Shown one piece after another: positions 45,902 through 64,000 of a stretch of 64,000 nt of DNA. How positions within the stretch are numbered: the first letter of the stretch is position 1; the number at the start of each line of letters is the position of its first letter. The notes under the pieces are model-generated. The model saw only the letters and a list, made by a program, of their open reading frames with translations, did no database searches and was not told the DNA's origin. The position numbers and the translations under genes were made by a program. Source of the DNA: Actinomycetota bacterium (GTDB lineage: Bacteria > Actinomycetota > Acidimicrobiia > Acidimicrobiales > JAJPHE01); contig JAJPHE010000160.1 in NCBI GenBank assembly GCA_021325435.1, forward strand, positions 10,202 to 74,201, written 5' to 3'.

Positions 45902-45915
45902 AGTCTCGACCCACC

Positions 45916-46992
45916 GTGAGGAAAGCCCTGTTTCTTGGCGCGGCTGCCGTCGGGTTGTCCCTGACCGCCGCCGCCTGCAACCCCATCGAGCCCTACGCCG
46001 CCCTAGTGAACGGGCAGGCCATCACCCAGACCGCCCTGAACCAGGAACTCGAAGCGGTCCGGTCCAGCCCCCAGGTGATGCAGACCCTCGCCCAGAACCA
46101 GCTGGCCGTCACCGGGGCCGGACAGGAGACGTTCAGCTCCGACTTCGCCGCCCAGGTGCTCCGGGGCGAGATCTTCTACGCCCTCATCCACCAGGAGGTC
46201 GTCCGCCGCCGCCTGACCGTCACCGGCGCCGACCTGGCCTCGGCCCGCCAGGACGCGGCGGCCGAGTTCGGCAGCCCCGGAGAGTTCCAGTCGCTCCCCG
46301 GCTACTACCAGGACGTCCTCGTCCACCGCTCGGCCGACGCCAACGCCCTGGCCGCCGCCATCGGCCGGGTCCATCTCGGCGCCGCCGCCATCGCCGCCTA
46401 CTACGCCGCCCACCGTGCCGAGTACGTGGAGGCGTGCGTGCAGCACATCCTGGTGGCGACCCAGGCCGAGGCCGCCCAGGTGAAGGCGGACCTGGCGGCG
46501 GGGAAGCCCTTCGACCAGGAGGCGGCGGCCAAGTCGACCGACACCGGCTCGGCGGCCAACGGCGGCCGGCTCGGCTGTGGCCCGGCCAACCAGTACGTGG
46601 CGCCGTTCGCCCACGCGGTGGAGACCCTGCCGGTCGGCGTGGTGAGCGATCCGGTGCAGAGCCAGTTCGGCTGGCACATCATCGAGGTGACGGCCCGGAC
46701 CCAGCAGCCGCTTTCCGCCGTCGAAAGCCAGATCCGCCAGCAGCTGCTGTCGAACGCCTCACAGTCGCTCAACGGCTTCCTCCAGCAGGCGTCGGCCCGG
46801 GCCGACATCGTGGTCAACGCCCGCTACGGGACCTGGGTCCGCTCCGGGCCGAACGGCCCCGGGGTTCAGCCCCCTCAGGCTCCGAACGTCCGCTCCGACG
46901 GCCCCGGCTCCGGGGGTCAGTCGTCGGGTCCGTCCGGCGGGCCCTCGGGCCCACCGGGTCCGTCAGGTCCGTCGGGTCCGTCGGGCCCGTGA
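45916..46992 (+). CDS. lipoprotein peptidyl-prolyl isomerase (SurA/PrsA-like, parvulin domain) with a Gly-Pro-Ser repeat tail
   Basis: Lipobox LSLTAAAC. Parvulin core VQHILVATQAEA...FGWHIIEV. Tail GPSGGPSGPPGPSGPSGPSGP. Start is GTG 45916. Confidence 0.75.
   Translation: MRKALFLGAAAVGLSLTAAACNPIEPYAALVNGQAITQTALNQELEAVRSSPQVMQTLAQNQLAVTGAGQETFSSDFAAQVLRGEIFYALIHQEVVRRRLTVTGADLASARQDAAAEFGSPGEFQSLPGYYQDVLVHRSADANALAAAIGRVHLGAAAIAAYYAAHRAEYVEACVQHILVATQAEAAQVKADLAAGKPFDQEAAAKSTDTGSAANGGRLGCGPANQYVAPFAHAVETLPVGVVSDPVQSQFGWHIIEVTARTQQPLSAVESQIRQQLLSNASQSLNGFLQQASARADIVVNARYGTWVRSGPNGPGVQPPQAPNVRSDGPGSGGQSSGPSGGPSGPPGPSGPSGPSGP
46957..46992 (+). repeat. 9-nt tandem repeat x4 (ggtccgtca/ggtccgtcg/ggtccgtcg/ggcccgtga)
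   Basis: Read directly. It encodes (GPS)n at the PPIase 3' end. The last unit contains both its stop and the GTG start of the next gene. Confidence 0.6.
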
Positions 46993-48509
46993 CCGCCGTG
47001 GTCGTCGCCGTGGGGCTCGGCCCGGCCGGGCCTGAGCTGCTGACGGCGGCGGCGAGGGCGGCCATCGAGGAGATCCCCCGGCGCTACCTGCGCACCGCCC
47101 GGCATCCCTCGGCCGTCGCCGTGCCCGACGCCACCAGCTTCGACGACCTCTACGACCGGGCCGAGACGTTCCCCGAGGTGTACGGGGCCATCGTCGACGC
47201 CCTGGCCGCCGCGGCCGCCGAGCACGGCCGGGTCCTCTACGCCGTGCCCGGCTCTCCCCGGGTGGCGGAGGCCACGGTCGCCGCCCTCCAGGAAGATCCC
47301 CGCGTCGAGCTCGAGGTGGTGCCGGGCCTGTCCTTCCTGGACCTGGTCTGGGACCGGCTCGGGGTCGACCCGGTCACCGCCGGCGCCCGCCTGGTCGACG
47401 GGGGCGCCTTTGCCGTCGACGCCGCCGGCGAGCGGGGCCCGTTGGTGGTCGGGCAGTGCTGGTCGCGCCAGGTCCTCTCCGACATCAAGCTGGCGGTGAC
47501 CGACGAGGCCCCCGAGTCGGCGGTGATCCTCCACCACCTCGGGCTGCCCGACGAGGTGGTGCGCTCGGTCGCGTGGGAGGACATCGACCGCAGCGTCGAG
47601 GCCGACCACCTGACGACGTTGTGGGTGCCGAGACTGGCCGCCCCCGTCGGGGTCGAGATGCTCCGCCTCGCCGAGCTGGTCAGGGCCCTGCGCCAGCGCT
47701 GCCCGTGGGACCGGGCCCAGACCCACCAAAGCCTGACCCGCCACCTGCTCGAGGAGTCCTACGAGGTGCTCGAGGCGATCGAGGCGCTCGAGCGACCGGA
47801 CGGCTCCACCGATCCCGACGCCTTCTCCCATCTGGAGGAGGAGCTGGGTGACCTGCTGTTCCAGGTCTACTTCCACGCCACCCTCGCCTCCGAGGAGGGC
47901 CACTTCGACCTCTCCGACGTCGCCCGCGGCATCCACGACAAGCTCGTGGTCCGCCACCCCCACGTCTTCGGCGACGTGAAGGTCGACACGCCCGACCAGG
48001 TGATGAGCAACTGGGAGCGGATCAAGCGCGACGAGAAGGGCCGGTCCAGCCTGATGGACGGGATTCCCGCCCACCTGCCGGCGCTCCATTACGCCAACAA
48101 GGTGCAGCGCAAGGCGGCCTCGGTGGGCTTCGACTGGCCGTCGGTCGACGGCCCCCTGGCCAAGGTGGCCGAGGAGGCCGACGAGGTTCGCGCCGAGATC
48201 ACCGCCGGCGGCGACGCGGCCGGCCCGGCGGCGACCGCCTCGGCCCGGCTCACCCATGAGGTCGGTGATCTCCTCTTCGCGGTGGTGAACGTGGCCCGGC
48301 ACGTGGGGGTGGACCCAGAAGCCGCCCTGCGCGCGTCGACGTCGGTGTTCCGATCCCGCTTCGCCGAAGTCGAGCGGCTGGCCGCCGAGCGCGGCATCGA
48401 CGTGCACGGCGCCGGAATCGAGGTGCTCGACGGATTGTGGGACGAGGCCAAGGAGGCCGAGGGAGCCGTCGCGCCTCGGGAGGAGAAGAAGGCCGACAAC
48501 CGACAATGA
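46989..48509 (+). CDS. mazG: tetrapyrrole-methylase-like domain fused to MazG nucleoside triphosphate pyrophosphohydrolase (YabN-type architecture)
   Basis: N-terminal VVVAVGLGPAGPELLT...LYAVPGSPRVAE (TP_methylase-like). C-terminal tandem MazG modules (CPWDRAQTHQSL..HLLEESYEVLEAI..EELGDLLFQV; KVAEEADEV...EVGDLLFAVVNVARH). Confidence 0.85.
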   Translation: MTAVVVAVGLGPAGPELLTAAARAAIEEIPRRYLRTARHPSAVAVPDATSFDDLYDRAETFPEVYGAIVDALAAAAAEHGRVLYAVPGSPRVAEATVAALQEDPRVELEVVPGLSFLDLVWDRLGVDPVTAGARLVDGGAFAVDAAGERGPLVVGQCWSRQVLSDIKLAVTDEAPESAVILHHLGLPDEVVRSVAWEDIDRSVEADHLTTLWVPRLAAPVGVEMLRLAELVRALRQRCPWDRAQTHQSLTRHLLEESYEVLEAIEALERPDGSTDPDAFSHLEEELGDLLFQVYFHATLASEEGHFDLSDVARGIHDKLVVRHPHVFGDVKVDTPDQVMSNWERIKRDEKGRSSLMDGIPAHLPALHYANKVQRKAASVGFDWPSVDGPLAKVAEEADEVRAEITAGGDAAGPAATASARLTHEVGDLLFAVVNVARHVGVDPEAALRASTSVFRSRFAEVERLAAERGIDVHGAGIEVLDGLWDEAKEAEGAVAPREEKKADNRQ

Positions 48510-50251
<1,742 letters not shown>

Positions 50252-50362
50252 GGACCGAACCGCCCGACCCGAGCCGCTGAAGGGTCGTGGGGGGGCGCCG
50301 GACCGCGCTCGACTACCCTCCGACCGAAGCCGCCGCCAGCGCACAAGACCGGGAGTCGACCC

Positions 50363-52666
50363 ATGAGCATCCTCGGTAACCGGGTGTTGAGGAAGGAGGA
50401 CCCCAAGTTCCTCACCGTCGGCGGCAGCTACGTCGACGACCTGCCGCTCGAGGGAGCCGTGCACGTGGTGTACGCCCGCTCGACGATGGCCCACGCCCGC
50501 ATCGGGGGGGTCGACAAGTCCGAGGCGGAGGCGGCTCCGGGGGTCCTGGCCGTCTACACCGCGGCCGACATCGACCTCGCCCCGATCCCGAACGGTGCCC
50601 CCTTCGGGAACCCGGCCATGACCCGACCGTGGCTGGCCGACGGCGTCGTGCGCTACGTCGGTGAACCGGTCGCCGCCGTGGTCGCCCAGACCCGGGCCCA
50701 GGCGGTGGACGCGGCCGAGATGGTCATCGTCGACTACGACCCGCTACCGGCGGTCGTGGATCCGGAGGCCGCCCTGCGTGACGAGACCCTGCTCTTCCCG
50801 GAGGCCGGCACCAACCTGGTGATGACCTTTCCCGACGCCCTGGCCGGCATCATGCTTCCGGCGGAGGCGGCCGACCAGGACGAGGGGATCTTCGACGACT
50901 GCGAGGTGGTGGTCGCCCGGCGCATCGTCAACCAGCGGGTGGCCCCTTGTCCGCTCGAGGTCCGGGCCGGCGCCGCTTCGTGGACGGAAGGGCGACTGAC
51001 GCAGTGGGCCACGACCCAGGCCCCCCACGGTGTGCGCGACACGCTGGCCCAGTCCCTCGGCGTCGACCCGACCGCGGTCCGGGTGGTCTCGCCCGACGTG
51101 GGAGGCGGCTTCGGCGCCAAGATCGGCGCCTACCCCGAGGAGCTCTTCCTGGCGTGGATATCGCGCGCCCTGGGGCGTCCCACCCGCTGGGTGGAGACTC
51201 GCAGCGAGAGCATGACGAACCTCGGGCACGGCCGGGCCCAGGTCCAGGACGTGCGCATCGGCGGGACGAGGGACGGTCGGATCCTCGCCTACCGGCTTGA
51301 CGTGATTCAGGACTCCGGGGCCTACCCGGCCATCGGTGCGTTCCTGCCCATGTTCACCCGCACCATGCTCACCGGCGTCTACGACGTACCCAAGGTGTAC
51401 TTCAAGGCCCGTTCGGTGGCCACCAACACCACCCCCACCGTCGCCTACCGGGGGGCGGGCCGCCCCGAGGCGACCGCCGCCATCGAGCGGGCCATCGACC
51501 TGTTCGCGGCGGAGATAGGCATGGACCCCGCCGACGTGCGCCGCCGCAACCTGGTCGGCAAGGACCGCTTCCCGTTCACCACCCCAACCGGCACCGTCTA
51601 CGACGTCGGGGACTACGAGCGGGCCCTCGATCTCGTGCTCGAGGCGGCCGACTACAAGTCTCTGCGCAAAGAGCAGGCCCGGCGGCGCCAGTCGGGCGAC
51701 GCGTCACAGCTCGGCATCGGGCTTTCGGTGTACGTCGAGATCACCAACGGCCTGCCCGGATCCGAGTTCGGGTCCGTCCAGGTCCGTCCGGATGGGAAGG
51801 TGACGGTGCGCACCGGCACCTCGCCGCACGGGCAGGGCCACGTCACGTCGTGGGCGATGCTGGTCTCCGAGCAGCTCGGCGTGGCGGTAGACGACATCGA
51901 GGTGGTCCACGGCGACACCGACGTCGTTCCCCGCGGTGTCGGCACCTATGGGTCGCGCTCGCTGCAGACCGGCGGGGTGGCGGTCAACCAGGCCGCCGGG
52001 CAGGTGGTGGAGAAAGCCCGTCAGCTCGCCGCCGACCTGCTCGAAGCCAGCCCCGACGACGTCGTGCTCGACAAGGCCGGGGGACGCTTCCACGTGGCCG
52101 GCACCCCGGCGGTGGGAAGGACGTGGTCCGAGCTGGCCCAGGCGGCCGGGGAAGGCGGCCTGTCCGCCGAGACCGACTTCACCGCCCCCGGGCCCACGTT
52201 CCCCTTCGGAGCCCACGTGGTGGTGGCCGAGGTGGACACCGAGACCGGCCGGGTGAGGATCTCGCGGGTGGTGGCGGTGGACGACGCCGGGCGGATCCTC
52301 AACCCGTTGCTGGCCGAGGGCCAGATCCACGGCGGGATCGCCCAGGGGGTCGCCCAGGCCCTCATGGAGGAGGTCGTCTACGACGAGGACGGCAACCCGG
52401 TCACCTCCAACCTGGCCGACTACGAGTTCGTGTCGGCCGCCGAGCTGCCCGCCTTCGAGACGATCCATATGGAGACGCCGACGCCGCTCAACGAGCTCGG
52501 TGCCAAGGGGATCGGCGAGTCGGGGACGATCGGTTCCACGCCCGCCGTCCAGAACGCGGTGGTCGACGCCCTGGCTCACCTCGGCGTCCGCCACGTACCG
52601 ATGCCGGCCACCCCCGAGCGGGTGTGGCGGGCCATCGCCGAGTCCCGCGCAGGAGGGAACAGTTGA
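50363..52666 (+). CDS. molybdopterin-binding large subunit of a xanthine dehydrogenase/aerobic CO dehydrogenase family enzyme (form II CoxL-like)
   Basis: 767 aa. N-terminal [16 protein letters not shown]. The active-site loop reads [12 protein letters not shown] (AYRGAGR rather than the AYxCSFR of bona fide CO dehydrogenases). C-terminal [18 protein letters not shown]. Confidence 0.9.
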
Positions 52667-52674
52667 AGGTATCC

Positions 52675-53136
52675 ATGACGATCAACGGCAGGTCGGTCGA
52701 CGCGGACGTCGAGCCGCGGACCCTGCTCGTCCACTTCATCCGAAACGACGTCGGTCTCACCGGCACCAACGTCGGGTGCGACACGACCAACTGCGGGGCG
52801 TGCACGATCCTGATGGACGGCGAGTCGGTGAAGTCGTGCACCGTCCTCGCCGTCCAAGCCGACGGAGCCAGCATCACCACCATCGAGGGGCTCGCCGAGC
52901 CCGACGGACCGATGCACCCCATGCAGGAGGCCTTTCGCGAGAACCACGCCTTGCAGTGTGGCTACTGCACCCCGGGGATGGTGATGGCGGCGGTGTCGCT
53001 GCTGCAGGAGAACCCCAGCCCGACCGAGGCCGAGGTGCGCGAAGGCCTCGAGGGGAACCTCTGTCGCTGCACCGGCTACCACAACATCGTCAAGGCGGTG
53101 CTGGCGGCGGCGTCGGCCCCCGGGGGGCCGAAGTGA
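52675..53136 (+). CDS. [2Fe-2S] small subunit (CoxS-like)
   Basis: [16 protein letters not shown] and [11 protein letters not shown]...[11 protein letters not shown]. An alternative TTG 52663 start would form a TTGA overlap with the large-subunit stop. Confidence 0.9.
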
Positions 53137-53954
53137 TCCCCGCCGCCTTCGAGTACGCCCGGGCCGGATCGGTCGACGAGGCCATCTCGCTTCTCTCCGA
53201 GCACGGCGAGGACGCCAAGGTCCTGGCCGGCGGCCACTCGCTGTTGCCGCTGATGAAGCTGCGCCTCGCCACGCCGTCGGCGCTCATCGACGTGGGCCGC
53301 CTGCAGGAGCTGTCGTACGTGCGCGACGCCGGCGACCGCATCGCCATCGGGGCCCTCACCCGCCACCGCGATCTGCAGGTGTCCGACGAGTTGGCCCGGT
53401 CGGCGCCGATCGTCTCCCACGTCGCCGGTCTGGTGGGCGACCCCCAGGTCCGCCACCGGGGGACCATCGGCGGGTCGGTGGCCCACGGCGACCCCGCCTC
53501 GGACCTGCCGGCCGTGGTGCTCGCCCTCGACGGCGAGCTGGTCATCCGGGGCCCGGCGGGGGAGCGGGTGGTGCCGGCGTCGGAGTTCTTCCACGGCTTC
53601 CTCGAGACCGCCATCGGCCCGGACGAGCTTCTCGTCGAGATCCGCCTGCGCAAGACGCAGGGGGGCTGGTCGTACCAGAAGTTCAACCGGCGGGCCCAGG
53701 ATTGGGCCACCGTCGGGGTGGCGGTGGCCCGGACCGACGGCACCCCCGCCGTTGCTCTCGTGAACATGGGTGCCACGCCGCTGCGGGCGGCCGCCGTTGA
53801 GTCCGCCCTCGCCGCTGGTGCCAGCCCGGCGGAGGCGGCCGAGTCGGCGGCCGAGGGCGCCGACCCGTCGAGCGACATCCAGGCGTCGGCCGAGTTCCGC
53901 CGCCACCTGGCCCGGGTGCTGGTGCGGCGGGGCCTCGAGGAGGCGGGCGTCTGA
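53133..53954 (+). CDS. FAD-binding medium subunit (CoxM-like)
   Basis: [10 protein letters not shown]...[17 protein letters not shown] and [22 protein letters not shown] overlap with the small subunit. Confidence 0.9.
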
Positions 53955-54862
53955 CCGCCTCCCCTGACGAGGTCCGCTCCGCCCTCGCCGCCCACGGCTA
54001 CCTAGCCGACGAGGGGTTGGCCACCGCCGTCTTCCTCGCCCTCACCCTCCGCCGGCCGCTGCTGCTCGAGGGCGAGGCCGGTGTGGGCAAGACCGAGGTG
54101 GCCAAGGTGCTCGCCCGCTGGACGGGCGGGGAGCTGCTGCGCCTCCAGTGCTACTAGGGGATCGACGTCACCCAGGCGGTCTACGAGTGGGACTACTCCC
54201 GCCAGCTGCTGCACCTGCGGGCCGCCGAGCTGCGGGGGGCGGGAGCCGAGATGGCCGCGGCGGTGGAGGACGAGCTGTTCTCCGAGCGCTTCCTCGTCCG
54301 CCGTCCCCTGCTGCAGGCCATCGCCGGCAACGGCGATGCCAAGGTCGCCCCACCGGTGCTGCTGATCGACGAGGTGGACCGGGCCGACGACGAGTTCGAG
54401 GCGTTCCTGCTCGAGATCCTCTCCGACTACGCCGTCACCGTGCCCGAGCTCGGCACCTTCCGGGCCGACACGCCCCCCGTCGTGGTGCTGACCTCCAACC
54501 GCACCCGCGACGTCCACGACGCCCTCAAGCGGCGGTGCCTCTACCACTGGGTCGAGCATCCGGACTTCGAGCGGGAGGTCGCCATCGTGCGGCTGCGGGC
54601 CCCGGAGGTGGGGGAGCGGCTGGCCCGCCAGGTGGCGGCCGCCGTGCAGGCCATGCGGGCGATGGGCCTGTACAAGCCCCCGGGAGTGGCCGAGACCATC
54701 GACTGGGCCCAGGCCCTCGCCGCCCTGGGCCGAACCGACCTCGACGAGTCCACTATCGAGGTGACCCTCGGCACCGTGCTCAAGTACCGCGAGGACGCCG
54801 AGCGGGTGGGGGCCGGCGGCCTCGGACCGCTGGTCGCCGAGGCAGTCGCCCGTGGCGTCTGA
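53951..54862 (+). pseudogene. MoxR-type AAA+ ATPase (CoxD-like) interrupted by an in-frame TAG at 54155-54157
   Basis: One reading frame gives ...RPLLLEGEAGVGKTEVAKVLARWTGGELLRLQCY-TAG-GIDVTQAVYEWDYSRQLL...VLLIDEVDRADDEFEAFLLEILSDY...VLTSNRTR. Walker A lies upstream of the stop and Walker B and sensor motifs downstream. The only N-terminal start is CTG 53951 (CTGA overlap, GGAGG 7 nt upstream). Confidence 0.75.
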
Positions 54863-55976
54863 CGGCCTGGTCACCGCCCCGGAGCGGATCGCCGTGGCCT
54901 TCGTGCGCGTGCTGCGTCGGGCCGGGCTGTCGGTGCCGCCCGGCAGCGCCGTCACCTACGCCCAGGCGCTGGCGGAGGTCGGCATCGACCAGCAAGGTCC
55001 GGTGTACTGGGCCGGTCGGGCCACCCTGCTGCGCCGCCCCGAAGACCGCCCGGCCTACGACCGCGTGTTCGCCGCCTTCTGGCTGGGTCGCCCGATGACG
55101 GTCGACGCCCCGCCGCCGGTGGAGGAGGTGCTCATCGTCGAGGACGACGCTGAGGGTGACGCCGGGCCCGAGGCCGGCGAGGACGAGGACCAGCGCCCCT
55201 CCTTGGTCGTGCGCTACAGCCCGACGGAGGTCCTCCGCCACAAGGACTTCGGCGCCTGCAGCCCCGAGGAGCTGGCCGAGACCCGCCGGATGATGAGCGA
55301 TCTCCGCCTGACCGCCGCCCTGCGCCGGACCCGCCGGCTGCGCCGCTCCCGCCGGCGCCGCGGGCGCCCCGATCCCCGCCGCACGGTGCGGATGGCCCTG
55401 CGCACCGGCGCCGAACCCGTTCGCCGGGCCCACCTCGAGCCGTCGTGGCGGCCCCGCCGGGTGGTTCTTCTGTGCGACGTCAGCGGGTCGATGGAGCCCT
55501 ACGCCCGGGCCCTGCTGCGCTTCCTGCATGTGGCCGTCATGGGCCGGGGCCGGGTCGAGGCCTTCGCCCTCGGCACCCGCCTCACCCGGCTGACCCGCCA
55601 GCTCTCCGGCCACGACCCGGACGTGGCCCTGGCCGCCGCGGCCGGGGCGGTGGCGGACTGGTCGGGGGGCACCCGGCTCGGGGACGGGCTGAGAGCCTTC
55701 AATGACCGCTTCGGCGCCCGGGGCATGGCCCGGGGGGCGGTCGTCGTCATCCTGTCGGATGGCTGGGACCGGGGCGACCCGGCTGTCCTCGGGGCGGAGA
55801 TGGCCCGCCTGAGCCGGGTGGCCCACCGCGTGGTCTGGGTCAACCCTCTGAAGGCCACACCCGGTTACGCCCCGCTGGCCAGAGGGATGGCAGCGGCCCT
55901 CCCGTACGTTGACAACTTCGTGGAGGGCCACTCGCTGGCCTCCCTCGAGGAGCTTTCGGAGGTCATCGGCGCATGA
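54852..55976 (+). CDS. VWA-domain protein (CoxE-like)
   Basis: MIDAS-type LLCDVSGSM, and WSGGTRLGDGL...VVILSDGWD. This is the usual partner of CoxD-type MoxR ATPases. Confidence 0.85.
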   Translation: MASDGLVTAPERIAVAFVRVLRRAGLSVPPGSAVTYAQALAEVGIDQQGPVYWAGRATLLRRPEDRPAYDRVFAAFWLGRPMTVDAPPPVEEVLIVEDDAEGDAGPEAGEDEDQRPSLVVRYSPTEVLRHKDFGACSPEELAETRRMMSDLRLTAALRRTRRLRRSRRRRGRPDPRRTVRMALRTGAEPVRRAHLEPSWRPRRVVLLCDVSGSMEPYARALLRFLHVAVMGRGRVEAFALGTRLTRLTRQLSGHDPDVALAAAAGAVADWSGGTRLGDGLRAFNDRFGARGMARGAVVVILSDGWDRGDPAVLGAEMARLSRVAHRVVWVNPLKATPGYAPLARGMAAALPYVDNFVEGHSLASLEELSEVIGA

Positions 55977-56287
55977 AAGAGGTACTGGGCGACATCGAGC
56001 GGTGGCGGTCGGCCGGCCGGCGGGTGGCGCTGGCCCGGGTGGTGGGCGTCGAAGGCTCCGGTCCCCGCGACCCGGGGGCGACCATGGCGGTGAGCGAAGA
56101 CGGCGAGGTGGCCGGCTCGGTCTCCGGAGGCTGTGTCGAGGGGGCGGTGGTGACCGAGGCGCTCGACGTGCTGGCCCGGGGGGAGGCCAAGCTGTGCACG
56201 TTCGGGTACTCCGACGATGAGGCCTTCGCCGTGGGGCTCACGTGCGGCGGCACCATCCACGTGTTCGTGGAGCCGCTGGACTGGTGA
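55973..56287 (+). CDS. stand-alone XdhC/CoxI N-terminal domain protein
   Basis: VALARVVGVEGSGPRDPGATMAVSEDGEVAGSVSGGCVEGAV matches the XdhC_CoxI motif. 104 aa with no Rossmann-like C-domain. Confidence 0.75.
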   Translation: MKEVLGDIERWRSAGRRVALARVVGVEGSGPRDPGATMAVSEDGEVAGSVSGGCVEGAVVTEALDVLARGEAKLCTFGYSDDEAFAVGLTCGGTIHVFVEPLDW

Positions 56288-57144
56288 GCCTCTATGAGAC
56301 CGTGCGCGACGCCCTGCGGGCCGAGGATCCGGTGGCCATGGCCACGGTGGTGGAGGTCGTCCCCCGCGAGGAGTGGGAGTTCCCCGACGACCCAGGCGTG
56401 GCGCTCGGGGCCAAGCTAGTGGTGCGCCCCGGTCATCCCCGTCAGGGGAGCCTGGGCCACGAAGGGCTCGACACGGTCGTGGCCCGCGACGCCCTCGGGG
56501 CTCTCGAGTCCGGCCTGTCCGACACCCGCCACTACGGGCGGCGGGGCCAGGCCCGCCGGCGCGAGGTCTCCGTCTTCGTCGAGGCGTTCGCCCCGCCCCC
56601 CCAGATGGTCATCTTCGGCGCCGTCGACTTCACCGCCGCCCTGGCCAAGGTGGCCAAGATCCTCGGCTACCGGGTGACGGTGTGCGACGCCCGGCCGGTT
56701 TTCGCCACCCCGGCCCGCTTCCCCATGGCCGACGAGGTGGTCGTCGACTGGCCGGACCGGCATCTGGCCAAGGTCGGGCCCGACCTCGGACCCCGCGACG
56801 CGGTGTGCGTGCTCACCCACGACCCGAAGTTCGACGTTCCAGCCATCGTCGCCGCCCTGCCGACGAGGGTGGGCTACCTGGGCGCCATGGGCTCGCGGCG
56901 GACCAACGCCGACCGGTTGGCCCGGCTCAAGGAGGCGGGGGTGGACGAGGCTGCCCTCGAGCGCCTGATGGCGCCGGTCGGCCTCGACATCGGCGCCCGG
57001 ACCCCGGAGGAGACGGCGATATCCATCTGCGCCGAGATCATCGCCCTGCGGGTGGGTTCCGGGTCGCGGAGCGAGGTCCCGTCCCTGCGTGACCGGGGTG
57101 GACCGATACATCGTGACGGCCGGGGCGAACCTGGGCCAGACTGA
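56284..57144 (+). CDS. XdhC-family molybdenum cofactor insertion chaperone (N and C domains)
   Basis: N-domain (VAMATVVEV...GAKLVVRPG...GSLG) plus Rossmann-like C-domain (MVIFGAVDFTAALAKVAKILGYRVTVCDARP...VLTHDPKFD...YLGAMGSRRT). GTGA overlap with the preceding gene. Confidence 0.8.
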   Translation: MSLYETVRDALRAEDPVAMATVVEVVPREEWEFPDDPGVALGAKLVVRPGHPRQGSLGHEGLDTVVARDALGALESGLSDTRHYGRRGQARRREVSVFVEAFAPPPQMVIFGAVDFTAALAKVAKILGYRVTVCDARPVFATPARFPMADEVVVDWPDRHLAKVGPDLGPRDAVCVLTHDPKFDVPAIVAALPTRVGYLGAMGSRRTNADRLARLKEAGVDEAALERLMAPVGLDIGARTPEETAISICAEIIALRVGSGSRSEVPSLRDRGGPIHRDGRGEPGPD

Positions 57145-57148
57145 GGGG

Positions 57149-58660
57149 ATGGAGGGGGGCACGGGTGGCGGCTCGCCCGACCTGCGCATTTCTGACGACG
57201 ATCGCCAGCAGGTCACCGAGCTGCTGCGACGTCACACGGCCGACGGGCGCCTGACCCTCGACGAGTTCGCTGAACGGGTCGGCGTGGCCCTGGCCGCCCG
57301 CACCCGTTCCGATCTCGAGGCCGTCACCGCCGACCTTCCCCGCGCCCCCGAGCCCGTGCCGGAAACCCGGCGCAAGAAGGCCCGCCGGCTGCTGGTGGCG
57401 GTGATGAGCGGGGCGACGGCCAAGGGAAGGTGGCGCACCGGACGGTCGGTCACCTGCATCGCCGTCATGGGCAGCTGCCATCTCGACTTCCGCCGGGCGG
57501 AGATCGACTTCGACGAAGTGGTGGTGACGGCCGTGGCCGTCATGGGCGGCATCGACATCGTCGTTCCGGAAGGCATCGACGTGGAGCTGACCGGGCTGCC
57601 CATCATGGGCGGCAAGCACATGAAGCTGGCTGACGTCCCGGTGCTGCCCGGCTCTCCCCGGATCGTGGTGCACGCCTTTCCCATCATGGGAGGCGTGCAC
57701 GTCCGCTCCCGCCCGGACAAGGGGGACGAGCCCGGGCCGGCTGGCGACCGCCGCCGCGACTCCAGCCATCACCACCAGCACTGGCGCGACGCCCAGGTGG
57801 AGTGGCAGCAGCAACAACGACAGATGGGCGACCAATGGCGGGCCCAGCAGGCGGAGATGGCCGAACAGCGCGACCGGACACGTGAGGAGCTGCGCCAACG
57901 GCGTAAGGAGATCCGCGACGAGATCAGGGGCAAAGCCCGCGAGCTCGAACGCCGCCACCGTGGGGGCCAGGCCATCGACCTCGCCGACCTCTACGACGTC
58001 TTGTTCACCCGCCCGGCCCCGGTGCCTGTGTCGCCGGCGTCGGGCACCACTCCGCCCGCCGCCCCGCAAGCGGCGACCGGCTTGGGCCGGCCCGCCGATG
58101 ACGAGCCGCTCGAGACCGACGTCGCCGGCGACCTCCCCGGCACTCTCGACGGCACCGTCACCATCATGTTCAGCGACATCGCCGGCTACGCCGAGATCAC
58201 CGAGCGTCTGGGGGATCTAGCCGCCCACGACCTGCTGCGTGAGCACAACCGGATCGTGCGTGACCTTCTCGTCACCCACGCCGGTTACGAGGTGAAGGCG
58301 CAGGGCGACGGCTTCATGGTGGCGTTCTCCAGCGCGGCCCGAGCGCTGCGGTGCGCCATCGGCATCCAGAAGGCGTTCGAGAAGTACGGCCTGGAGAATC
58401 CCGACGAGCCCATCCGGGTCCACGTCGGGCTGCACACCGGTGAGGCCGTCCGCGACGGGGGCGACTTCCTCGGCCGCACCGTCATCGTGGCCAGCCGGCT
58501 GACCGGTATCGCCGGCCCGGGCGAGATCCTGGTCTCCTCCCTGCTGCGTGAGCTCACCGACTCGTCGCGCGAGTTCCGCTTCGGCGAGGCCCGTCAGGTG
58601 ATCTTGAAGGGCATGAGCGCGCCCCAGACCGCTTACCCGGTCGAGTGGCGCGACGCTTGA
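57149..58660 (+). CDS. multidomain DUF1707 / LiaF-like (DUF2154) / coiled-coil / class III nucleotidyl cyclase protein
   Basis: N-terminus LRISDDDRQQVTELLRRHTADGRLTLDEFAERV (DUF1707). Middle VMGSCHLDFRRAEIDFDEVVVTAVAVMGGIDIVVPEGIDVEL (LiaF C-terminal-like). Arg/Gln/Glu-rich coiled-coil. C-terminus VTIMFSDIAGYAEITERLGD...YEVKAQGDGFMVAF...VGLHTGEAV...GRTVIVASRL (cyclase homology domain). ATG 57149 follows GAGGGG. Confidence 0.8.
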   Translation: MEGGTGGGSPDLRISDDDRQQVTELLRRHTADGRLTLDEFAERVGVALAARTRSDLEAVTADLPRAPEPVPETRRKKARRLLVAVMSGATAKGRWRTGRSVTCIAVMGSCHLDFRRAEIDFDEVVVTAVAVMGGIDIVVPEGIDVELTGLPIMGGKHMKLADVPVLPGSPRIVVHAFPIMGGVHVRSRPDKGDEPGPAGDRRRDSSHHHQHWRDAQVEWQQQQRQMGDQWRAQQAEMAEQRDRTREELRQRRKEIRDEIRGKARELERRHRGGQAIDLADLYDVLFTRPAPVPVSPASGTTPPAAPQAATGLGRPADDEPLETDVAGDLPGTLDGTVTIMFSDIAGYAEITERLGDLAAHDLLREHNRIVRDLLVTHAGYEVKAQGDGFMVAFSSAARALRCAIGIQKAFEKYGLENPDEPIRVHVGLHTGEAVRDGGDFLGRTVIVASRLTGIAGPGEILVSSLLRELTDSSREFRFGEARQVILKGMSAPQTAYPVEWRDA

Positions 58661-58688
58661 ACGGACCGGCGGTCTGACCGCCGCCGCC

Positions 58689-59231
58689 GTGGTGCTGGCC
58701 GCGGGCGGCGGCGCCCGCTTCGCCGGGGCCACCCACAAGCTGCTGGCGTCGTTCCGCGGCCGTCCGCTGGTCCTGTGGTCCGTGGACGCCGCCCGGGCTG
58801 CCGGCCTGGACGAGACGGTGGTCATCACCGGCGCCGTCGACCTGGCCGGTCAGCTGCCTGACGACGTCACCGTCATCGAGAACCACGCCTGGGCCGAGGG
58901 GCAGGCGACCTCCTTGCGGGCCGCGGTCGACTGGGCCGAGCACCGCGGCCACCGGGCCGTCATCGTGGGCCTGGGCGACCAGCCGCTGATCCCCGCCGCG
59001 GCGTGGACTGCCGTGGCCGCCGACCCGCACCCCATCGCCGTGGCCTCCTTCGAAGGGCGTCGCCGACCACCGGTGAAGCTGGACCGCCAGGTCTGGCCGC
59101 TGCTGCCGGTGGGGGGCGACGTGGGGGCCCGCGAGCTGATCGCCTCTCGGCCGGACCTGGTGGGCGAGGTAGCGTGCCCGGGAACGCCAGCCGACGTCGA
59201 CACCGTGGAGGACCTCGTCCGATGGAGCTGA
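58689..59231 (+). CDS. MobA/MocA-like nucleotidyltransferase (probable molybdenum cofactor cytidylyltransferase)
   Basis: VVLAAGGGARF...KLL, then VIVGLGDQPLIP. The N-terminal limit is uncertain. Confidence 0.7.
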   Translation: MVLAAGGGARFAGATHKLLASFRGRPLVLWSVDAARAAGLDETVVITGAVDLAGQLPDDVTVIENHAWAEGQATSLRAAVDWAEHRGHRAVIVGLGDQPLIPAAAWTAVAADPHPIAVASFEGRRRPPVKLDRQVWPLLPVGGDVGARELIASRPDLVGEVACPGTPADVDTVEDLVRWS

Positions 59232-59920
59232 CCAACGAGTTCCGGGTATCCGTGCCCGTCGACGAGGCGTGGGCCGTCCTCACCGACGTGGAGCGGATCG
59301 CTCCCTGCATGCCCGGCGCCGAGCTGCAGGAGGTAGAGGGTGAGGAGTACCGCGGGGTCGTCAAGGTGAAGGTGGGGCCCATCAGCGCCCAGTACAAGGG
59401 GGCCGCCCGCTTCGTCGAGCGTGACGACACGGCCAAGAAGGCGGTGCTCAAGGCCGAGGGTCGCGACACCCGTGGCCAGGGCAACGCCAGCGCGACCATC
59501 ACCGCCGTGCTGGCGCCGGACGGCGCCGGCACCAGTGTCTCGATCGTCACCGACCTGTCCGTGACCGGCAAGGTGGCCCAGTTCGGCAGGGGGGTGCTGG
59601 CCGACGTCAGCAGCAAGTTGCTGGGCCAGTTCGTCGAGAAGCTCGAGGCGGATGTCATCTCCGGATCGGGTGGTGGCGGGCCGTCGGGCGGGTCCGGCCC
59701 CGGAGCCGACCATGCCGCCGTGCCGACCACCACCCCCTCCGGCAACGGCGTCGGCGGAGACGGCCGGGTCGGCGCCCAGGTGCGGCCCATCCGGTCGGCC
59801 CCGGCCGAGCCCGTCGACCTGCTCGAGGCGGCGGGCGGCTCTGTGGCCAAGCGGGCCGTCCCGGTCCTCGCCGTCGCGGTCGTGTCCCTGCTTGTCTGGC
59901 GGTGGTTCCGCCGCCGGTGA
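59222..59920 (+). CDS. CoxG-like SRPBCC protein with a C-terminal membrane anchor
   Basis: FRVSVPVDEAWAVLTDVERIAPCMPGAELQEVEGEEYRGVVKVKVGPISAQYKG matches the CoxG family. Gly/Pro-rich linker, then a TM helix VPVLAVAVVSLLVWRWF. Confidence 0.8.
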   Translation: MELTNEFRVSVPVDEAWAVLTDVERIAPCMPGAELQEVEGEEYRGVVKVKVGPISAQYKGAARFVERDDTAKKAVLKAEGRDTRGQGNASATITAVLAPDGAGTSVSIVTDLSVTGKVAQFGRGVLADVSSKLLGQFVEKLEADVISGSGGGGPSGGSGPGADHAAVPTTTPSGNGVGGDGRVGAQVRPIRSAPAEPVDLLEAAGGSVAKRAVPVLAVAVVSLLVWRWFRRR

Positions 59921-60378
59921 GGGGACCTTCGCCCGCCGACCCCGACGTGGTGGGCGGGCTGCTCGGGCGCCGACCCCGGGCCGAGTTCGAGGTGGTGGTC
60001 GCCGACGCAGGCGGGCGCCCGGTGGTCATCCGCAACGCGCCGCTGATGGAGGACGGCGCCCCTATGCCGACCCGCTACTGGCTGGTCGGCGACGAGGAGC
60101 GCCAAGCCGTCAGTCGGTTGGAGTCGGCCGGCGGGGTCCGCCGGGCCGAGGCGGATGTCGACCCGGTCGACCTCGAGGACGCCCATCGGCGTTACGCGGC
60201 CGAGCGTGACGCCGCCCTGCCCCCCGGTTGGAACGGGCCCCGCCCCACCGGAGGGGTGGGCGGAACCCGCCGGGGCGTCAAGTGCCTTCACGCCCACTAC
60301 GCCTGGCACCTCGCCGGGGGAGACGATCCGGTGGGGCGCTGGGTGGCCGCTCGCCTCGCCGAGGGAACGGGTGACTGA
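59902..60378 (+). CDS. DUF501 domain protein (Rv1025-like)
   Basis: PMPTRYWL, GGVGGTRRGVKCLHAHYAWHLAGG.DPVG. An alternative start GTG 59917 forms a GTGA overlap with the coxG-like stop. Confidence 0.8.
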   Translation: MVPPPVRGPSPADPDVVGGLLGRRPRAEFEVVVADAGGRPVVIRNAPLMEDGAPMPTRYWLVGDEERQAVSRLESAGGVRRAEADVDPVDLEDAHRRYAAERDAALPPGWNGPRPTGGVGGTRRGVKCLHAHYAWHLAGGDDPVGRWVAARLAEGTGD

Positions 60379-61285
60379 CACCGTCGCCGCCATCGACTGT
60401 GGCACCAACTCCACCCGTCTTCTCATTGCCGACCGGGCCGGGCGGACTCTCGATCGACGCATGGTGATCACCCGACTCGGCCAGGGGGTCGATGCCCAAC
60501 GCCGGCTCTCGCCGGCCGGCGTCGAGCGCACCATCGAGACGTTGCGCTCTTATCGGAAGGCCATGGACGCTCACGGTGTCGGGGCCGCCCGGCTGGTCGC
60601 CACCTCGGCGGCCCGCGACGCCGCGGACCGCGACGAGTTCTTTGACGCCGCCCGGCAGGTCACCGGAGTGACGCCTGAGTTGCTGGCGGGAGACGAAGAA
60701 GGGCGCCTGTCCTTCGCCGGGGCCACGGCCGGGCTGCCCGTTGGCCAGGGCCCGTTCCTCGTGGTGGACATCGGGGGCGGATCCACCGAACTGGTGGTGG
60801 GCGAGGCAACCGTGAAGGCGGTGTGGTCGGCCGACGTGGGCTGTGTCCGGGTCTCCGAGCGCTTCCTCCAGAAGGACCCTCCCGCCGGCCCCGAGCTCGA
60901 ACGGGCCCGGGCCCACGTTTCGACCGTCCTCGCCGCCGCCGTCGAAGCGATGGGCGGCCTGGCCGGGGCCCGGACCCTCGTCGGGCTGGCTGGCACGGTG
61001 AGCACCGCCGCCATGGTCGACCTGGGCCTCGAGCGTTATGACCGCGAGCGGGTCCACCATCACCGTCTCACCGCCCCCGTCGTCGCCGGCATCCTCCACG
61101 AACTGGCCGCCCTCCCCCTCGAGGAGCGGGCCCGGCGGCCAGGTGTCGAGCCCGGGCGGGCCGACGTGATCGTCGGCGGGCTCGTCGTCCTCGACGCCGT
61201 CCTCGCCGACCTCGGCTTCGCCGAGTGCCTGGTCTCCGAGTCCGACATCCTCGACGGCTTGGTGATGAGCCTGCTGGATCGGTGA
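60371..61285 (+). CDS. ppx: Ppx/GppA-family exopolyphosphatase
   Basis: VAAIDCGTNSTRLLIAD, VATSAARDA and VVDIGGGSTELV (ASKHA fold phosphate motifs). Confidence 0.85.
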   Translation: MTDTVAAIDCGTNSTRLLIADRAGRTLDRRMVITRLGQGVDAQRRLSPAGVERTIETLRSYRKAMDAHGVGAARLVATSAARDAADRDEFFDAARQVTGVTPELLAGDEEGRLSFAGATAGLPVGQGPFLVVDIGGGSTELVVGEATVKAVWSADVGCVRVSERFLQKDPPAGPELERARAHVSTVLAAAVEAMGGLAGARTLVGLAGTVSTAAMVDLGLERYDRERVHHHRLTAPVVAGILHELAALPLEERARRPGVEPGRADVIVGGLVVLDAVLADLGFAECLVSESDILDGLVMSLLDR

Positions 61286-61301
61286 CCGGCGCCGTCCCCT
61301 A

Positions 61302-62420
61302 ATGTCGGAGGGGATGCCCCGCTCCGATCGCGTGCTCATGGGCCCCGGCCCCTCGAACCTCTACCCGGAGGTCACCGAGGCGCTGCAGCGGCCACTCGTC
61401 GGGCACCTCGACCCCGACTTCCTCGCCGTTCTCGACGAGACGTGCGACCGGCTGCGCACGGTCTTCTCGACGGCGAACCCGCTGACGCTGCCGATCAGCG
61501 GCACCGGCTCCGCGGGCATGGAGGCCTCGTTCGTCAATCTGGTGGCCCCCGGCGACACGGTGGTCGTCGGAGTCAACGGCGTGTTCGGGGAACGCATGTG
61601 CGACGTCGCCGCCCGGTGCGGAGCCGAGGTCGTCCGGGTCGACGAACGGTGGGGGAACCCGATCGACCCTGAACGGTTGCTCGCGGCGCATCCCCATCCG
61701 AAGCTCATCGCGGTCGTCCACGCCGAGACCTCCACCGGGGTGCGCAACGAGGTGGAGGCGCTTGGCGCCGGCAAGGGCGACGCCCTGCTGGTGGCCGATT
61801 GCGTCACCTCCCTAGGGGGCATCCCGTTCGCCACCGACGGCTGGGGGGTCGACGTCGCCTACAGCGGCACCCAGAAGTGCCTCGGAGTTCCCCCCGGGCT
61901 GGCCCCGCTGACGATGTCACCGGGCGCCGTCGAGCGCCGGGTGGAGCGACCCCAGTCGTGGTATCTCGACCTCGGCATGATCTCCCAGTACACCGGTTCG
62001 ACGAGCGGGGGGGCGACTCGCCGCTACCACCACACCGCCCCGGTGACGATGATCAACGCCCTTCACGCCGGCCTGGGCGCCATCCTCGAGGAGGGGCTGG
62101 CGGGGGCGTGGGCCCGCCACGAGGAGTGCGGCCGACTCCTGCAGAAAGGGCTGCAGGAGCTGGGCTTCGAGCTGTTCGCCGCCGAGGGTCACCGGCTACC
62201 CCAGCTGACGACGGTGTTGATCCCCGACGGTCTCCTGCCCGGAGGCCTCGACGAGGCCGGCGCCCGCCGGCTGCTCCTCGAGCGCTACGGGATCGAGGTC
62301 GGTGGGGGACTCGGCGAATATGCCGGCCGGATGTGGAGGATCGGCTGCATGGGCCACACCGCCCGGCCCCGCAACGTAACCCTCCTGCTCGGGGCCCTCG
62401 GCGAGATCCTGGGCCGGTGA
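61302..62420 (+). CDS. class V PLP-dependent aminotransferase (serine/alanine--glyoxylate type)
   Basis: LMGPGPSN..PEV, SGTGSAGMEA, VHAETSTG and the PLP lysine context YSGTQKCLGVPPGLAP. Confidence 0.85.
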   Translation: MSEGMPRSDRVLMGPGPSNLYPEVTEALQRPLVGHLDPDFLAVLDETCDRLRTVFSTANPLTLPISGTGSAGMEASFVNLVAPGDTVVVGVNGVFGERMCDVAARCGAEVVRVDERWGNPIDPERLLAAHPHPKLIAVVHAETSTGVRNEVEALGAGKGDALLVADCVTSLGGIPFATDGWGVDVAYSGTQKCLGVPPGLAPLTMSPGAVERRVERPQSWYLDLGMISQYTGSTSGGATRRYHHTAPVTMINALHAGLGAILEEGLAGAWARHEECGRLLQKGLQELGFELFAAEGHRLPQLTTVLIPDGLLPGGLDEAGARRLLLERYGIEVGGGLGEYAGRMWRIGCMGHTARPRNVTLLLGALGEILGR

Positions 62421-63040
62421 GCGCCCGGTCGGTCGGGGATCCTGCCGGCGCAGTCCTGGTCGGGCGGCGCATCCGGCTCAGGCCCCTCGTTGCCGGCGAC
62501 TTCGAGGAGTGGCGCGAGGTGCGACTCCACAACGAGAGCTGGCTCACGCCGTGGGAGCCCCGGCCGGTGCCCGGGCGTCCCGACGTCGTCCGCGACGCCC
62601 GGGCCTTCGCCTCGCGCTGCGGGGCCCGCGCCCGCGAGGCGCAGTTCGGCACCGCCTACGGCTTCGGCATCTTCGTCGACGACCGCTTCTCGGGCGAGAT
62701 CAACCTGTCCTCGGTCCAGCGGGGCCCGCTACAGACGGCCGACATCGGCTACTGGATTGACCGCCGCCGGGCCGGACACTCGTACATGTCCGAGGCGGTG
62801 GTCCTCCTGGCCCGGTTCGCCTTCGAGGACCTGGCCCTGCACCGGCTGCAGATCTCCATCATCCCCCGCAACCTTCGCAGCCGACGGGTGGTGGAGAAGC
62901 TGAACCTGCGCGAGGAGGGGCTGGCCGTGCGCCTGGTCGAGATCAACGGCGTCTGGGAGGACCACCTCCGCTACGCCATCACCGCCGAGGAGTGGCTCGA
63001 CCGGCGCGACCAGTTGGTCGGCGAATGGCTCAACGGCTGA
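62417..63040 (+). CDS. GNAT N-acetyltransferase (RimJ/RimL-like)
   Basis: IRLRPLVAGDFEEW, IGYWIDRRRAGHSYMSEAV and LHRLQISIIPRNLRSRRVVEKLNL. GTGA overlap with the upstream stop. Confidence 0.8.
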   Translation: MSARSVGDPAGAVLVGRRIRLRPLVAGDFEEWREVRLHNESWLTPWEPRPVPGRPDVVRDARAFASRCGARAREAQFGTAYGFGIFVDDRFSGEINLSSVQRGPLQTADIGYWIDRRRAGHSYMSEAVVLLARFAFEDLALHRLQISIIPRNLRSRRVVEKLNLREEGLAVRLVEINGVWEDHLRYAITAEEWLDRRDQLVGEWLNG

Positions 63041-63069
63041 ACGGCTGAATGGCCGCTCGGCCCCTGCTG

Positions 63070-63879
63070 TCAGCCCTTGCCGGACCCGGACACCCGCCGT
63101 CGGATCGCCTCGAGCCGCTCGGCGAAGAAGGGCTGTGAGAGGGACCACAGCTGCGCCTCGAGCTCGAGGTCCACGGCCGGCTCGTGGTCGTCGAGGACCG
63201 ACGCCGCCCGCAGGGTGTGCTTTACCCGCCGGACCAGCTCGGGGGGCCCCGCCGCCGCCCGCCCGGCGACAGCTACCGCCGTGTCGCGCAAGGCGTCGTC
63301 GGCCACGCACTCCCAGACCAAACCGCGGGCCGCGGCCTGCTCGCCGTCCAGAGCCTGCCCGAACAGGACAAGGGCGGCGGCGGTCTGCGGGCCGACCAGG
63401 CGCGACAGCATCCACGTGTGGCCTCCACCCGGGTGAAGGCCGAGATCGAGAAAGCGGGTGTCGAACTTCGCCGACCGGCCGGCGATGCGCAGGTCACAGG
63501 CCAGGGCCAGGTTCATGCCGGCGCCCACGGCGGCACCGTTGACAGCCGCCACCGTCGGCAGTGTCGAGCGCGAGACGCGTAGGAAGCCCTCGTAGATCGA
63601 GCGCATCGACTCGCCCTGACCGGAGCCGCCCGAGCCCCGGGCGGCCTCGCCGGCCCGGCCCAGGTTCGACAGGTTGGCGCCGGCGCAGAAGGCCGGAGGC
63701 GCCCCGGTGATCACCACCGCCCCCACGGAGGTGCCCTCCTCCAGTCGGTCGAAGATGGCGACCAGGTCGGCGACCATGGCCTCCGACAGGGCGTTGCGCC
63801 GTTCGGGGTCGTCCAGGGTCAGAACGGCGACTGATGCCCCGTCGGCCTCAACCGTGTCGACGCGGACGGCGTCGGGCAC
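63070..63879 (-). CDS. enoyl-CoA hydratase/isomerase (crotonase) family protein
   Basis: LDDPERRNALS, VVITGAPPAFCAGANL, and PTVAAVNGAAVGAGMNLALACDLRIA. Confidence 0.9.
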   Translation of the reverse strand: MPDAVRVDTVEADGASVAVLTLDDPERRNALSEAMVADLVAIFDRLEEGTSVGAVVITGAPPAFCAGANLSNLGRAGEAARGSGGSGQGESMRSIYEGFLRVSRSTLPTVAAVNGAAVGAGMNLALACDLRIAGRSAKFDTRFLDLGLHPGGGHTWMLSRLVGPQTAAALVLFGQALDGEQAAARGLVWECVADDALRDTAVAVAGRAAAGPPELVRRVKHTLRAASVLDDHEPAVDLELEAQLWSLSQPFFAERLEAIRRRVSGSGKG

Positions 63880-63884
63880 CGCCT

Positions 63885-64000
63885 CAGGCCTCCGTGGGCC
63901 GGACCACCGCGGGGGAGCGGCGGAAGAACTGCTCGACGTCGCGTTCGTAGCGGTAGTTGGGACGGGTCTGGCCGATCACCCGCTGTAGGCGGCGCGAGCG
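63885..64000 (-). CDS. 3' end of an unidentified gene (C-terminal 38 codons plus stop; continues off-window)
   Basis: The minus frame is open from the window edge to TGA (tca 63885-63887): ...RVIGQTRPNYRYERDVEQFFRRSPAVVRPTEA. The stop lies 5 nt before the crotonase start, suggesting an operon. No family assigned. Confidence 0.35.

Follow-up and report, generated by a model that had tools for sequence, protein, structure and literature searches.

Why should a gene for a second-messenger enzyme lie among the maturation genes of a molybdenum hydroxylase? The question is raised by a gene in a 64,000-nt stretch of DNA from an Actinomycetota bacterium of the order Acidimicrobiales (GenBank assembly GCA_021325435.1, contig JAJPHE010000160.1, positions 10,202 to 74,201 of the forward strand); we call this whole stretch the window and number positions from its first letter. 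The gene encodes a 503-aa protein that joins a DUF1707 (SHOCT-like) helical domain, a LiaF-C-like (Toastrack) beta domain, a charged linker and a class III nucleotide cyclase domain, and it occupies the slot between an xdhC gene and a MobA/MocA-like gene in a cox-like cluster. The position proves to be old but dispensable. The reading that we favour, with moderate confidence, is of a cytoplasmic, active, ATP-specific cyclase on a SHOCT-Toastrack sub-membrane module, an accessory to, and probably co-transcribed with, an operon for a hydroxylase resembling form II carbon monoxide dehydrogenase (CODH).

The same four-part architecture had been proposed in an earlier note on this DNA, and Pfam and an AlphaFold2 model agree with it, although the LiaF-like_C match falls slightly under its cut-off. 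The model was built with 120 homologues as input and has a mean predicted local distance difference test score (pLDDT) of 86. The cyclase domain is matched by Guanylate_cyc (PF00211) over residues 335-493 with 62.7 bits against a cut-off of 21.9. Its closest solved relative by phmmer is Ma1120 of Mycobacterium avium (PDB 4WP3, 4WP8, 5D15; E = 2.8e-35), which is the best match in both sequence and fold; Foldseek places the model on Ma1120 chain 4wp8_B with a TM-score of 0.93 and 41% identity. The metal-binding residues D343 and D387 are each present in all 120 homologues, as are D439 of the substrate pair and the transition-state residue R450, and K383 of the substrate pair is present in 119. 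K383 and D439 align with K101 and D157 of Ma1120, which has the same Lys/Asp pair, metal Asp residues and Arg. The metal Asp residues and the Lys/Asp pair had been aligned by hand in the earlier note, and both Ma1120 and the 120 homologues bear that alignment out.

One catalytic position departs from the canon. At residue 446, where Asn is usual, Ile is found in 116 of the 120 homologues and Asn in only four, so that the transition-state Asn-Arg pair (for which PMC4215837 cites Yan et al. 1997) is incomplete. The Ile had already been noticed, and HMMER aligns Ile446 with Ala164 of Ma1120 (GRTVIVASR vs GRNVAMAAR); the Asn within the Ma1120 segment GRNVAMAAR was considered as the catalytic Asn and is ruled out by the published numbering (A164, R168). 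In Ma1120 Ala164 replaces the usual Asn, yet the protein is an active adenylyl cyclase, and the mutation A164N drastically lowers its activity (Syed et al. 2014, PMC4215837). Because it is fixed in 116 homologues, we take Ile446 to be a trait of the family rather than a lesion, and because active Ma1120 also lacks the Asn, its absence is a subfamily trait that gives no ground for excluding these proteins from class III. The near-invariance of the remaining catalytic residues across the 120 homologues implies selection on a working site. The suggestion that activity may be attenuated loses ground on all three counts. Judging from these residues and from the Ma1120 analogy, the cyclase is probably catalytically active and specific for ATP, forming cyclic AMP (cAMP).

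The N-terminal module is read as follows. DUF1707 (PF08044) matches residues 12-64 with 72.7 bits against a cut-off of 27.6 (E = 2.4e-20), and AlphaFold2 models three short helices there (16-31, 37-49 and 53-60, pLDDT >90). Residues 79-188 are modelled as all-beta with pLDDT 94-97. Both DUF1707 and LiaF-like_C were matched in all 39 of the homologue N-terminal modules scanned, LiaF-like_C at E <= 1e-3, and a stand-alone module from another genome (G046) scores 34.5 bits to LiaF-like_C. We accept the assignment of the middle domain to LiaF-C/Toastrack because of this sequence evidence and not because of a fold match; the fold evidence is consistent with it, not decisive. Toastrack unites DUF2154 (the LiaF C-terminal domain), DUF4097 and DUF2807, and it has been suggested to serve as a platform on which signalling complexes form beneath the membrane, with SHOCT-like and Toastrack fusions noted in Actinobacteria (PMC11237479). 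Neither a hydropathy scan nor the AlphaFold2 model gave a transmembrane helix in the 503-aa protein. The most hydrophobic 19-residue window (residues 121-139, Kyte-Doolittle 1.83) includes acidic residues and sits where beta strands of the LiaF-like domain are predicted, in keeping with the earlier observation that no such segment is present. The accompanying worry, that LiaF-like domains are usually membrane-tethered, is weakened by PMC11237479, in which DUF1707 is read as a SHOCT-like anchor predicted at the inner membrane leaflet.

Between the Toastrack and cyclase domains lies a linker. AlphaFold2 models residues 205-271 of it as one long helix, rich in Arg, Glu and Gln; further on, residues 296-328 are rich in Pro and Ala and disordered (pLDDT <50). 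The charged coiled-coil of the earlier note survives as a real long charged helix in this protein, but not as a functional element: across the 120 homologues the distance from beta domain to cyclase runs from 24 to 170 aa (median 73), and linker sequences are unrelated even among orthologues at the same genomic position. The linker, on this comparison, is to be read as a spacer and not as a conserved coiled-coil transducer. Since it is variable, partly disordered and non-conserved, rigid allostery between sensor and cyclase appears unlikely.

The reading frame is uninterrupted from 57149 to 58660. A database cluster (P0002) is 100% identical to the 503-aa protein with 20 extra N-terminal residues (523 aa, from GTG 57089). 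ATG 57149 is the likely start codon, because in-frame stops directly precede the aligned start in the orthologues of four genomes (G002-G005), and the 523-aa version is probably over-extended. Public databases hold >1,300 matching proteins, the best 120 of which, under generic names, all combine DUF1707 with a cyclase domain. NCBIfam gave only partial cyclase matches on the 503-aa protein, the best being the LipJ model with 92 bits against a cut-off of 800.

The surroundings of the gene are those that had been described, between an XdhC chaperone gene and MocA-like and CoxG-like genes, and Pfam confirms the neighbours (Table 1). Pfam matches across coxL-coxS-coxM (50363-53954) are to MoCoBD_1/2, Ald_Xan_dh_C, FAD_binding_5 and CO_deh_flav_C. 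The AYRGAGR motif of coxL is that of form II and is treated alongside form I and form II CODH systems (PMC7645674). The cyclase gene is separated from xdhC by 4 nt and from the MobA/MocA-like gene by 28 nt, and these gaps make co-transcription with its neighbours most likely. No terminator-like site was found inside or beside the cyclase gene, promoter and terminator consensus scans nearby were unhelpful, and no Rfam families were found in 45000-64000. The stand-alone XdhC N-domain gene and the full-length xdhC occur in the same order in nearly all cluster-bearing relatives, and because both pieces are conserved in order the pair is a stable feature rather than a local break. An open reading frame at 54148-55098 with no Pfam match (orf54148) was discarded: it overlies coxD and coxE out of frame, and coxD itself is the frame given in the table.

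Table 1. Features of the cox-like cluster and of the cyclase gene, in window positions
Feature	Position	Strand	Basis
DivIC/FtsB-like gene, left border	49451-50251	+	Pfam DivIC
coxL, form II CODH-like molybdenum hydroxylase	50363-52666	+	AYRGAGR at residue 361; Pfam (see text)
coxS	52663-53139	+	2Fe-2S Cys motifs in translation
coxM	53142-53954	+	Pfam (see text)
coxD, MoxR-type ATPase	53951-54862	+	translation; in-frame TAG codon 69
coxE (VWA)	54852-55976	+	VWA_CoxE E = 8e-59
Stand-alone XdhC N-domain gene	55973-56287	+	Pfam XdhC_CoxI and XdhC_C across both xdhC genes
Full-length xdhC, directly 5' of cyclase	to 57144	+	as for the N-domain gene
SHOCT-like / Toastrack / class III cyclase gene (P0001)	57149-58660	+	503 aa, three Pfam domains
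DUF1707 SHOCT-like helical domain	57182-57340	+	PF08044, AlphaFold2 helices
LiaF-C-like (Toastrack) beta domain	57383-57712	+	PF09922 sub-cut-off, all-beta model
Variable linker, charged helix then disordered stretch	57713-58150	+	AlphaFold2, composition
Class III cyclase homology domain (residues 335-498)	58151-58642	+	PF00211, phmmer, Foldseek
Codon D343	58175-58177	+	read directly
Codon K383	58295-58297	+	read directly
Codon D387	58307-58309	+	read directly
Codon D439	58463-58465	+	read directly
Codon I446	58484-58486	+	read directly
Codon R450	58496-58498	+	read directly
MobA/MocA-like nucleotidyltransferase, directly 3' of cyclase	58689-59231	+	NTP_transf_3
coxG	59222-59920	+	Pfam COXG; ATG read from sequence
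DUF501 gene and ppx/gppA, right border	59902-61285	+	Pfam DUF501, Ppx-GppA

Does the arrangement recur? We searched 60 same-order genomes for the cyclase protein and for the DUF501 anchor and compared the regions with the window proteins; 59 genomes were assessable. The DUF501 anchor is conserved in 57 of 61 genomes. A cox-like cluster adjoins it, between ftsB/DivIC and DUF501-ppx, in 39 of the 59, and in 15 of these 39 (~40%), from at least 10 families, the slot between xdhC and mocA holds the SHOCT-Toastrack-cyclase gene. The earlier note had asked whether cyclase genes recur beside XdhC, MocA and CoxG genes, and in this order they do. In another three clusters (in G029, G046 and G059) the slot contains no more than the SHOCT-Toastrack module, and for a further three the contig is incomplete at this point. 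DivIC directly adjoins DUF501, without the cluster, in 14 genomes, and one genome (G025) has DivIC-cyclase-DUF501 without cox genes. The DivIC / DUF501-ppx locus is a long-lived insertion site.

In three genomes (G003, G005 and G038) a genome search found both halves of the cyclase gene though local tblastn had missed the cyclase half; extracted reading frames and alignment show the genes of G003 and G005 to be complete. Slot gaps of 0.6-0.85 kb in five genomes, a size that would suit a divergent SHOCT-Toastrack gene, gave no SHOCT or Toastrack match, and G032 matched only DUF6941. The slot of G020 (L092:2166-4643, minus strand) encodes an 825-aa HAMP-GGDEF-EAL protein, another kind of second-messenger enzyme. 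Genes with the SHOCT-like and Toastrack domains and no cyclase lie at L057:2150-2860 (minus strand), L059:2136-2771 (minus strand), L062:1-327 and L063:1544-2095 (minus strand), three of them in the slot and one (G021) near DUF501 without mocA or coxG; the module either predates the fusion or outlived loss of the cyclase domain. One slot copy (L050, from G049) has lost every catalytic residue (ELEQLG vs DKDDIR), and another (L045, from G050) is split by a frameshift, so some lineages appear to be losing the cyclase in place.

A wider scan of species genomes gave 80 loci, mostly from metagenome-assembled genomes of Acidimicrobiales or Acidimicrobiaceae. Taken together with the loci of the same-order survey, they give ~60 full-length copies: 16-18 lie in the cox slot, 5-6 are flanked by DivIC and DUF501 with no cox genes, and 39-40 lie elsewhere. 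A maximum-likelihood tree scatters the slot copies along its backbone and groups the off-slot copies into a few derived clades with good support, one of them with 27 rows. As the slot copies are paraphyletic along the backbone, the position is old and was long retained; the tree fits an old position in the locus followed by several moves out. For the large off-slot clade only generic metabolic genes recur as shared context (aldehyde and acyl-CoA dehydrogenases). In this clade (L115, L116, L123-L151) 14 of ~27 copies have Asn, Ser or Arg instead of the substrate Lys but keep the other catalytic residues, and nucleotide preference may have changed there.

The three full-length proteins most similar to it in the database (P0006, P0004 and P0011; 60-65% identity) all lack cox neighbours. 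An incidental neighbourhood, as these three alone would suggest, was reversed by the same-order survey, and the P0006 group, the nearest relatives of the window gene, is one move out of the slot. In one stretch of the closest-homologue genome (L181, G061:C1:1247100-1261000) several cluster genes (mobA-like, coxE and coxM) align only as runs of short pieces, which points to decay or to frameshifts introduced in assembly; coxL had no match within this stretch.

How might such a protein act? Class III cyclases are active as homodimers, whose interface holds two active sites, and all catalytic positions are present on this single chain. The N-terminal module would set where, at the inner membrane face, the protein gathers and how densely, and such gathering, through proximity or masking, would favour or hinder the pairing of the cyclase domains. 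The cAMP formed would be read by the four cNMP_binding proteins that are encoded elsewhere in the source genome. Co-transcribed with xdhC and mocA, the cyclase would be supplied as the hydroxylase operon is expressed, and it might be placed near CoxG, a membrane-bound menaquinone-binding partner of molybdenum CODH (Mo-CODH; PMC12202499). Because operon and cyclase are each found without the other, the coupling would be accessory and not part of the maturation machinery. What the gene order and domains suggest is an optional link from cAMP signalling to a CO-dehydrogenase-like enzyme. A stronger version, in which the module is a dedicated docking sensor beneath the membrane for the hydroxylase or for its partners in maturation and quinone coupling (CoxD, CoxE, XdhC and CoxG) and the cyclase turns their assembly or activity state into cAMP, we think unlikely; that the module senses the hydroxylase or the maturation factors directly is speculative. 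If true, it would be a previously undescribed second-messenger circuit inside a molybdoenzyme operon of Acidimicrobiales, and lineages whose slot carries just the module, or a GGDEF-EAL protein, would be cases of a different output.

Several results weigh against an active accessory cyclase of the hydroxylase operon. At the level of the protein, LiaF-like_C (PF09922) matches residues 95-154 with 26.2-28.0 bits, slightly below the cut-off of 29 (E = 8e-6); a fold search with the N-terminal 200 residues had as its top PDB match 4QRK, one of two Toastrack reference structures (PMC11237479), with a non-significant E of 0.19 and a TM-score of 0.24; and Ile differs from Ala, so that Ma1120 is a precedent and no proof. 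The coxD gene has an in-frame TAG at 54155-54157 (LQCY*GID) where all 23 of the relatives that cover the codon have Glu (LQCYEGID). The TAG is either an error of assembly or a genuine nonsense mutation, so that the source genome may lack a working maturation ATPase and the cluster may there be non-functional. At the level of the locus, the slot is empty in six of the 39 cluster-bearing genomes and holds other genes in 12, among them IlvD, acyl-CoA dehydrogenases, an FAD monooxygenase, an IS200 transposase, DUF6941 and the HAMP-GGDEF-EAL protein. The genome of P0006, the closest homologue, has the cluster with an empty slot (~108 nt from xdhC to mocA) and the cyclase 1.8 Mb away. Most wider-sample homologues lie outside the cox context, and 5-6 species keep DivIC-cyclase-DUF501 without cox genes (G025, L103, L108, L129 and L157). 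Co-occurrence with the hydroxylase cluster is not obligatory, and a dedicated role of the gene in molybdoenzyme maturation is not supported. Conserved order alone is no proof of shared function, since the surrounding operon can hold embedded genes.

The empty and otherwise filled slots, the many copies in unrelated contexts and the departure of the closest homologue are also what would be expected of a general signalling enzyme in a permissive, recombination-prone gap, with no tie to the hydroxylase and held there by the operon alone; the lack of a cAMP receptor gene on the contig carrying the cyclase points the same way. We regard such a passenger as possible but rather unlikely, given that this gene is what fills the slot in members of at least 10 families, that its position there is, by the tree, old and long retained, that three further genomes have the SHOCT-Toastrack module by itself at this place and that one more has a HAMP-GGDEF-EAL second-messenger enzyme there. 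Less probable again is an attenuated or non-catalytic cyclase that, having lost its Asn, serves mainly as a nucleotide-binding regulator. Changing the transition-state Asn in mammalian and Rv1625c cyclases strongly lowers the turnover number (kcat), which with Ile446 itself and the fully degenerate G049 orthologue speaks for this view; against it stand the fixed Ile, the (near-)invariant remainder of the site and Ma1120, which is active without the Asn and harmed by its restoration. The cyclase might instead belong with ftsB/DivIC-DUF501-ppx, in a division or polyphosphate role, with the cox cluster as an independent second resident. The cox-free loci, the module-only gene of G021 near DUF501 and the link of Toastrack proteins to envelope stress (PMC11237479) would fit this, but the cox-free cases would follow just as readily from two deletions of flanking cox genes, nothing cyclase-like lies between DivIC and DUF501 in the 14 genomes where they adjoin, and with the cluster present the gene is always between xdhC and mocA, never at the cluster edge. 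We consider this very improbable.

Comparison with known systems places the active, accessory cyclase that we favour more closely. We know of no cox-operon context for Ma1120. Its solved chains (166-210 aa) are approximately the catalytic domain only, with no SHOCT-like/Toastrack module and no long linker, and it has Ala where the window protein's family has Ile. Homologous catalytic domains are also found in Rv1900c (LipJ; PDB 1YBT, E = 2e-20) and Rv1264 (PDB 1Y10, E = 1e-9), which share the design of an N-terminal domain controlling a C-terminal cyclase dimer; the N-terminal domains differ, that of Rv1900c being an alpha/beta-hydrolase and that of Rv1264 a pH-sensing helical domain. Sinha et al. 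in 2005 are said to have reported Asn/His instead of the Lys/Asp pair in Rv1900c. With the LiaF/Toastrack proteins of the PSP/Lia systems (Ravi et al. 2024, PMC11237479) the window protein appears, on the sequence evidence, to have the LiaF-C/DUF2154 beta-solenoid in common. Unlike LiaF proper, it lacks the LiaI-LiaF-TM region and PspC, and unlike LiaF with LiaS/LiaR, Pfam finds no kinase or regulator among the neighbours adjoining its gene. Its output would be the fused cyclase, a word that PMC11237479 never mentions.

The accessory genes of Mo-CODH (coxD, coxE, coxF/xdhC and coxG of Oligotropha carboxidovorans and Mycobacterium smegmatis) have counterparts in the same operon here, on the same strand and with tight spacing, and CoxG acts at the membrane (PMC12202499, PMC4240915), the predicted site of the SHOCT-Toastrack module. 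Pfam and NCBIfam give only DUF1707, LiaF-like_C and cyclase matches for the window protein and no homology to CoxD, CoxE, CoxF/XdhC, CoxG or MocA, and the cluster dispenses with the cyclase in many Acidimicrobiales. The protein is neither a LiaF orthologue nor a Cox maturation factor. To our knowledge SHOCT-Toastrack-cyclase is absent from characterised cox operons. Compared with characterised Mo-CODH, the hydroxylase of the window is of form II (AYRGAGR). Among the papers searched, none joins an adenylate cyclase with XdhC and CoxG, and none is on a SHOCT-like domain fused to a class III cyclase or on the position of such a gene in a cox-like operon.

Toastrack and SHOCT-like domains are widespread and, as far as we know, without a demonstrated molecular function; fused to a cAMP-producing enzyme, a Toastrack domain would come with an easily measured readout of what the module senses. 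Form II CODH-like enzymes are abundant in soil Actinomycetota, with substrates and regulation unsettled, and a signalling gene that persists in such operons across an order gives a concrete lead on these enzymes. The >100 sequences with a fixed Ile at the "essential" Asn position help, with the Ma1120 precedent, to define which residues class III cyclases need. Should the operon link be no more than positional, the protein would count as an ordinary cyclase from a large family with generic annotation.

A second gene with a LiaF-like domain lies far from the cluster and, together with the gene after it, spans 1467-2866 of the window. As read from the translations only, it is of the canonical membrane-bound kind, with transmembrane helices and a beta-rich C-terminal domain, and the next gene, which it overlaps by 4 nt, has histidine-kinase-like motifs.

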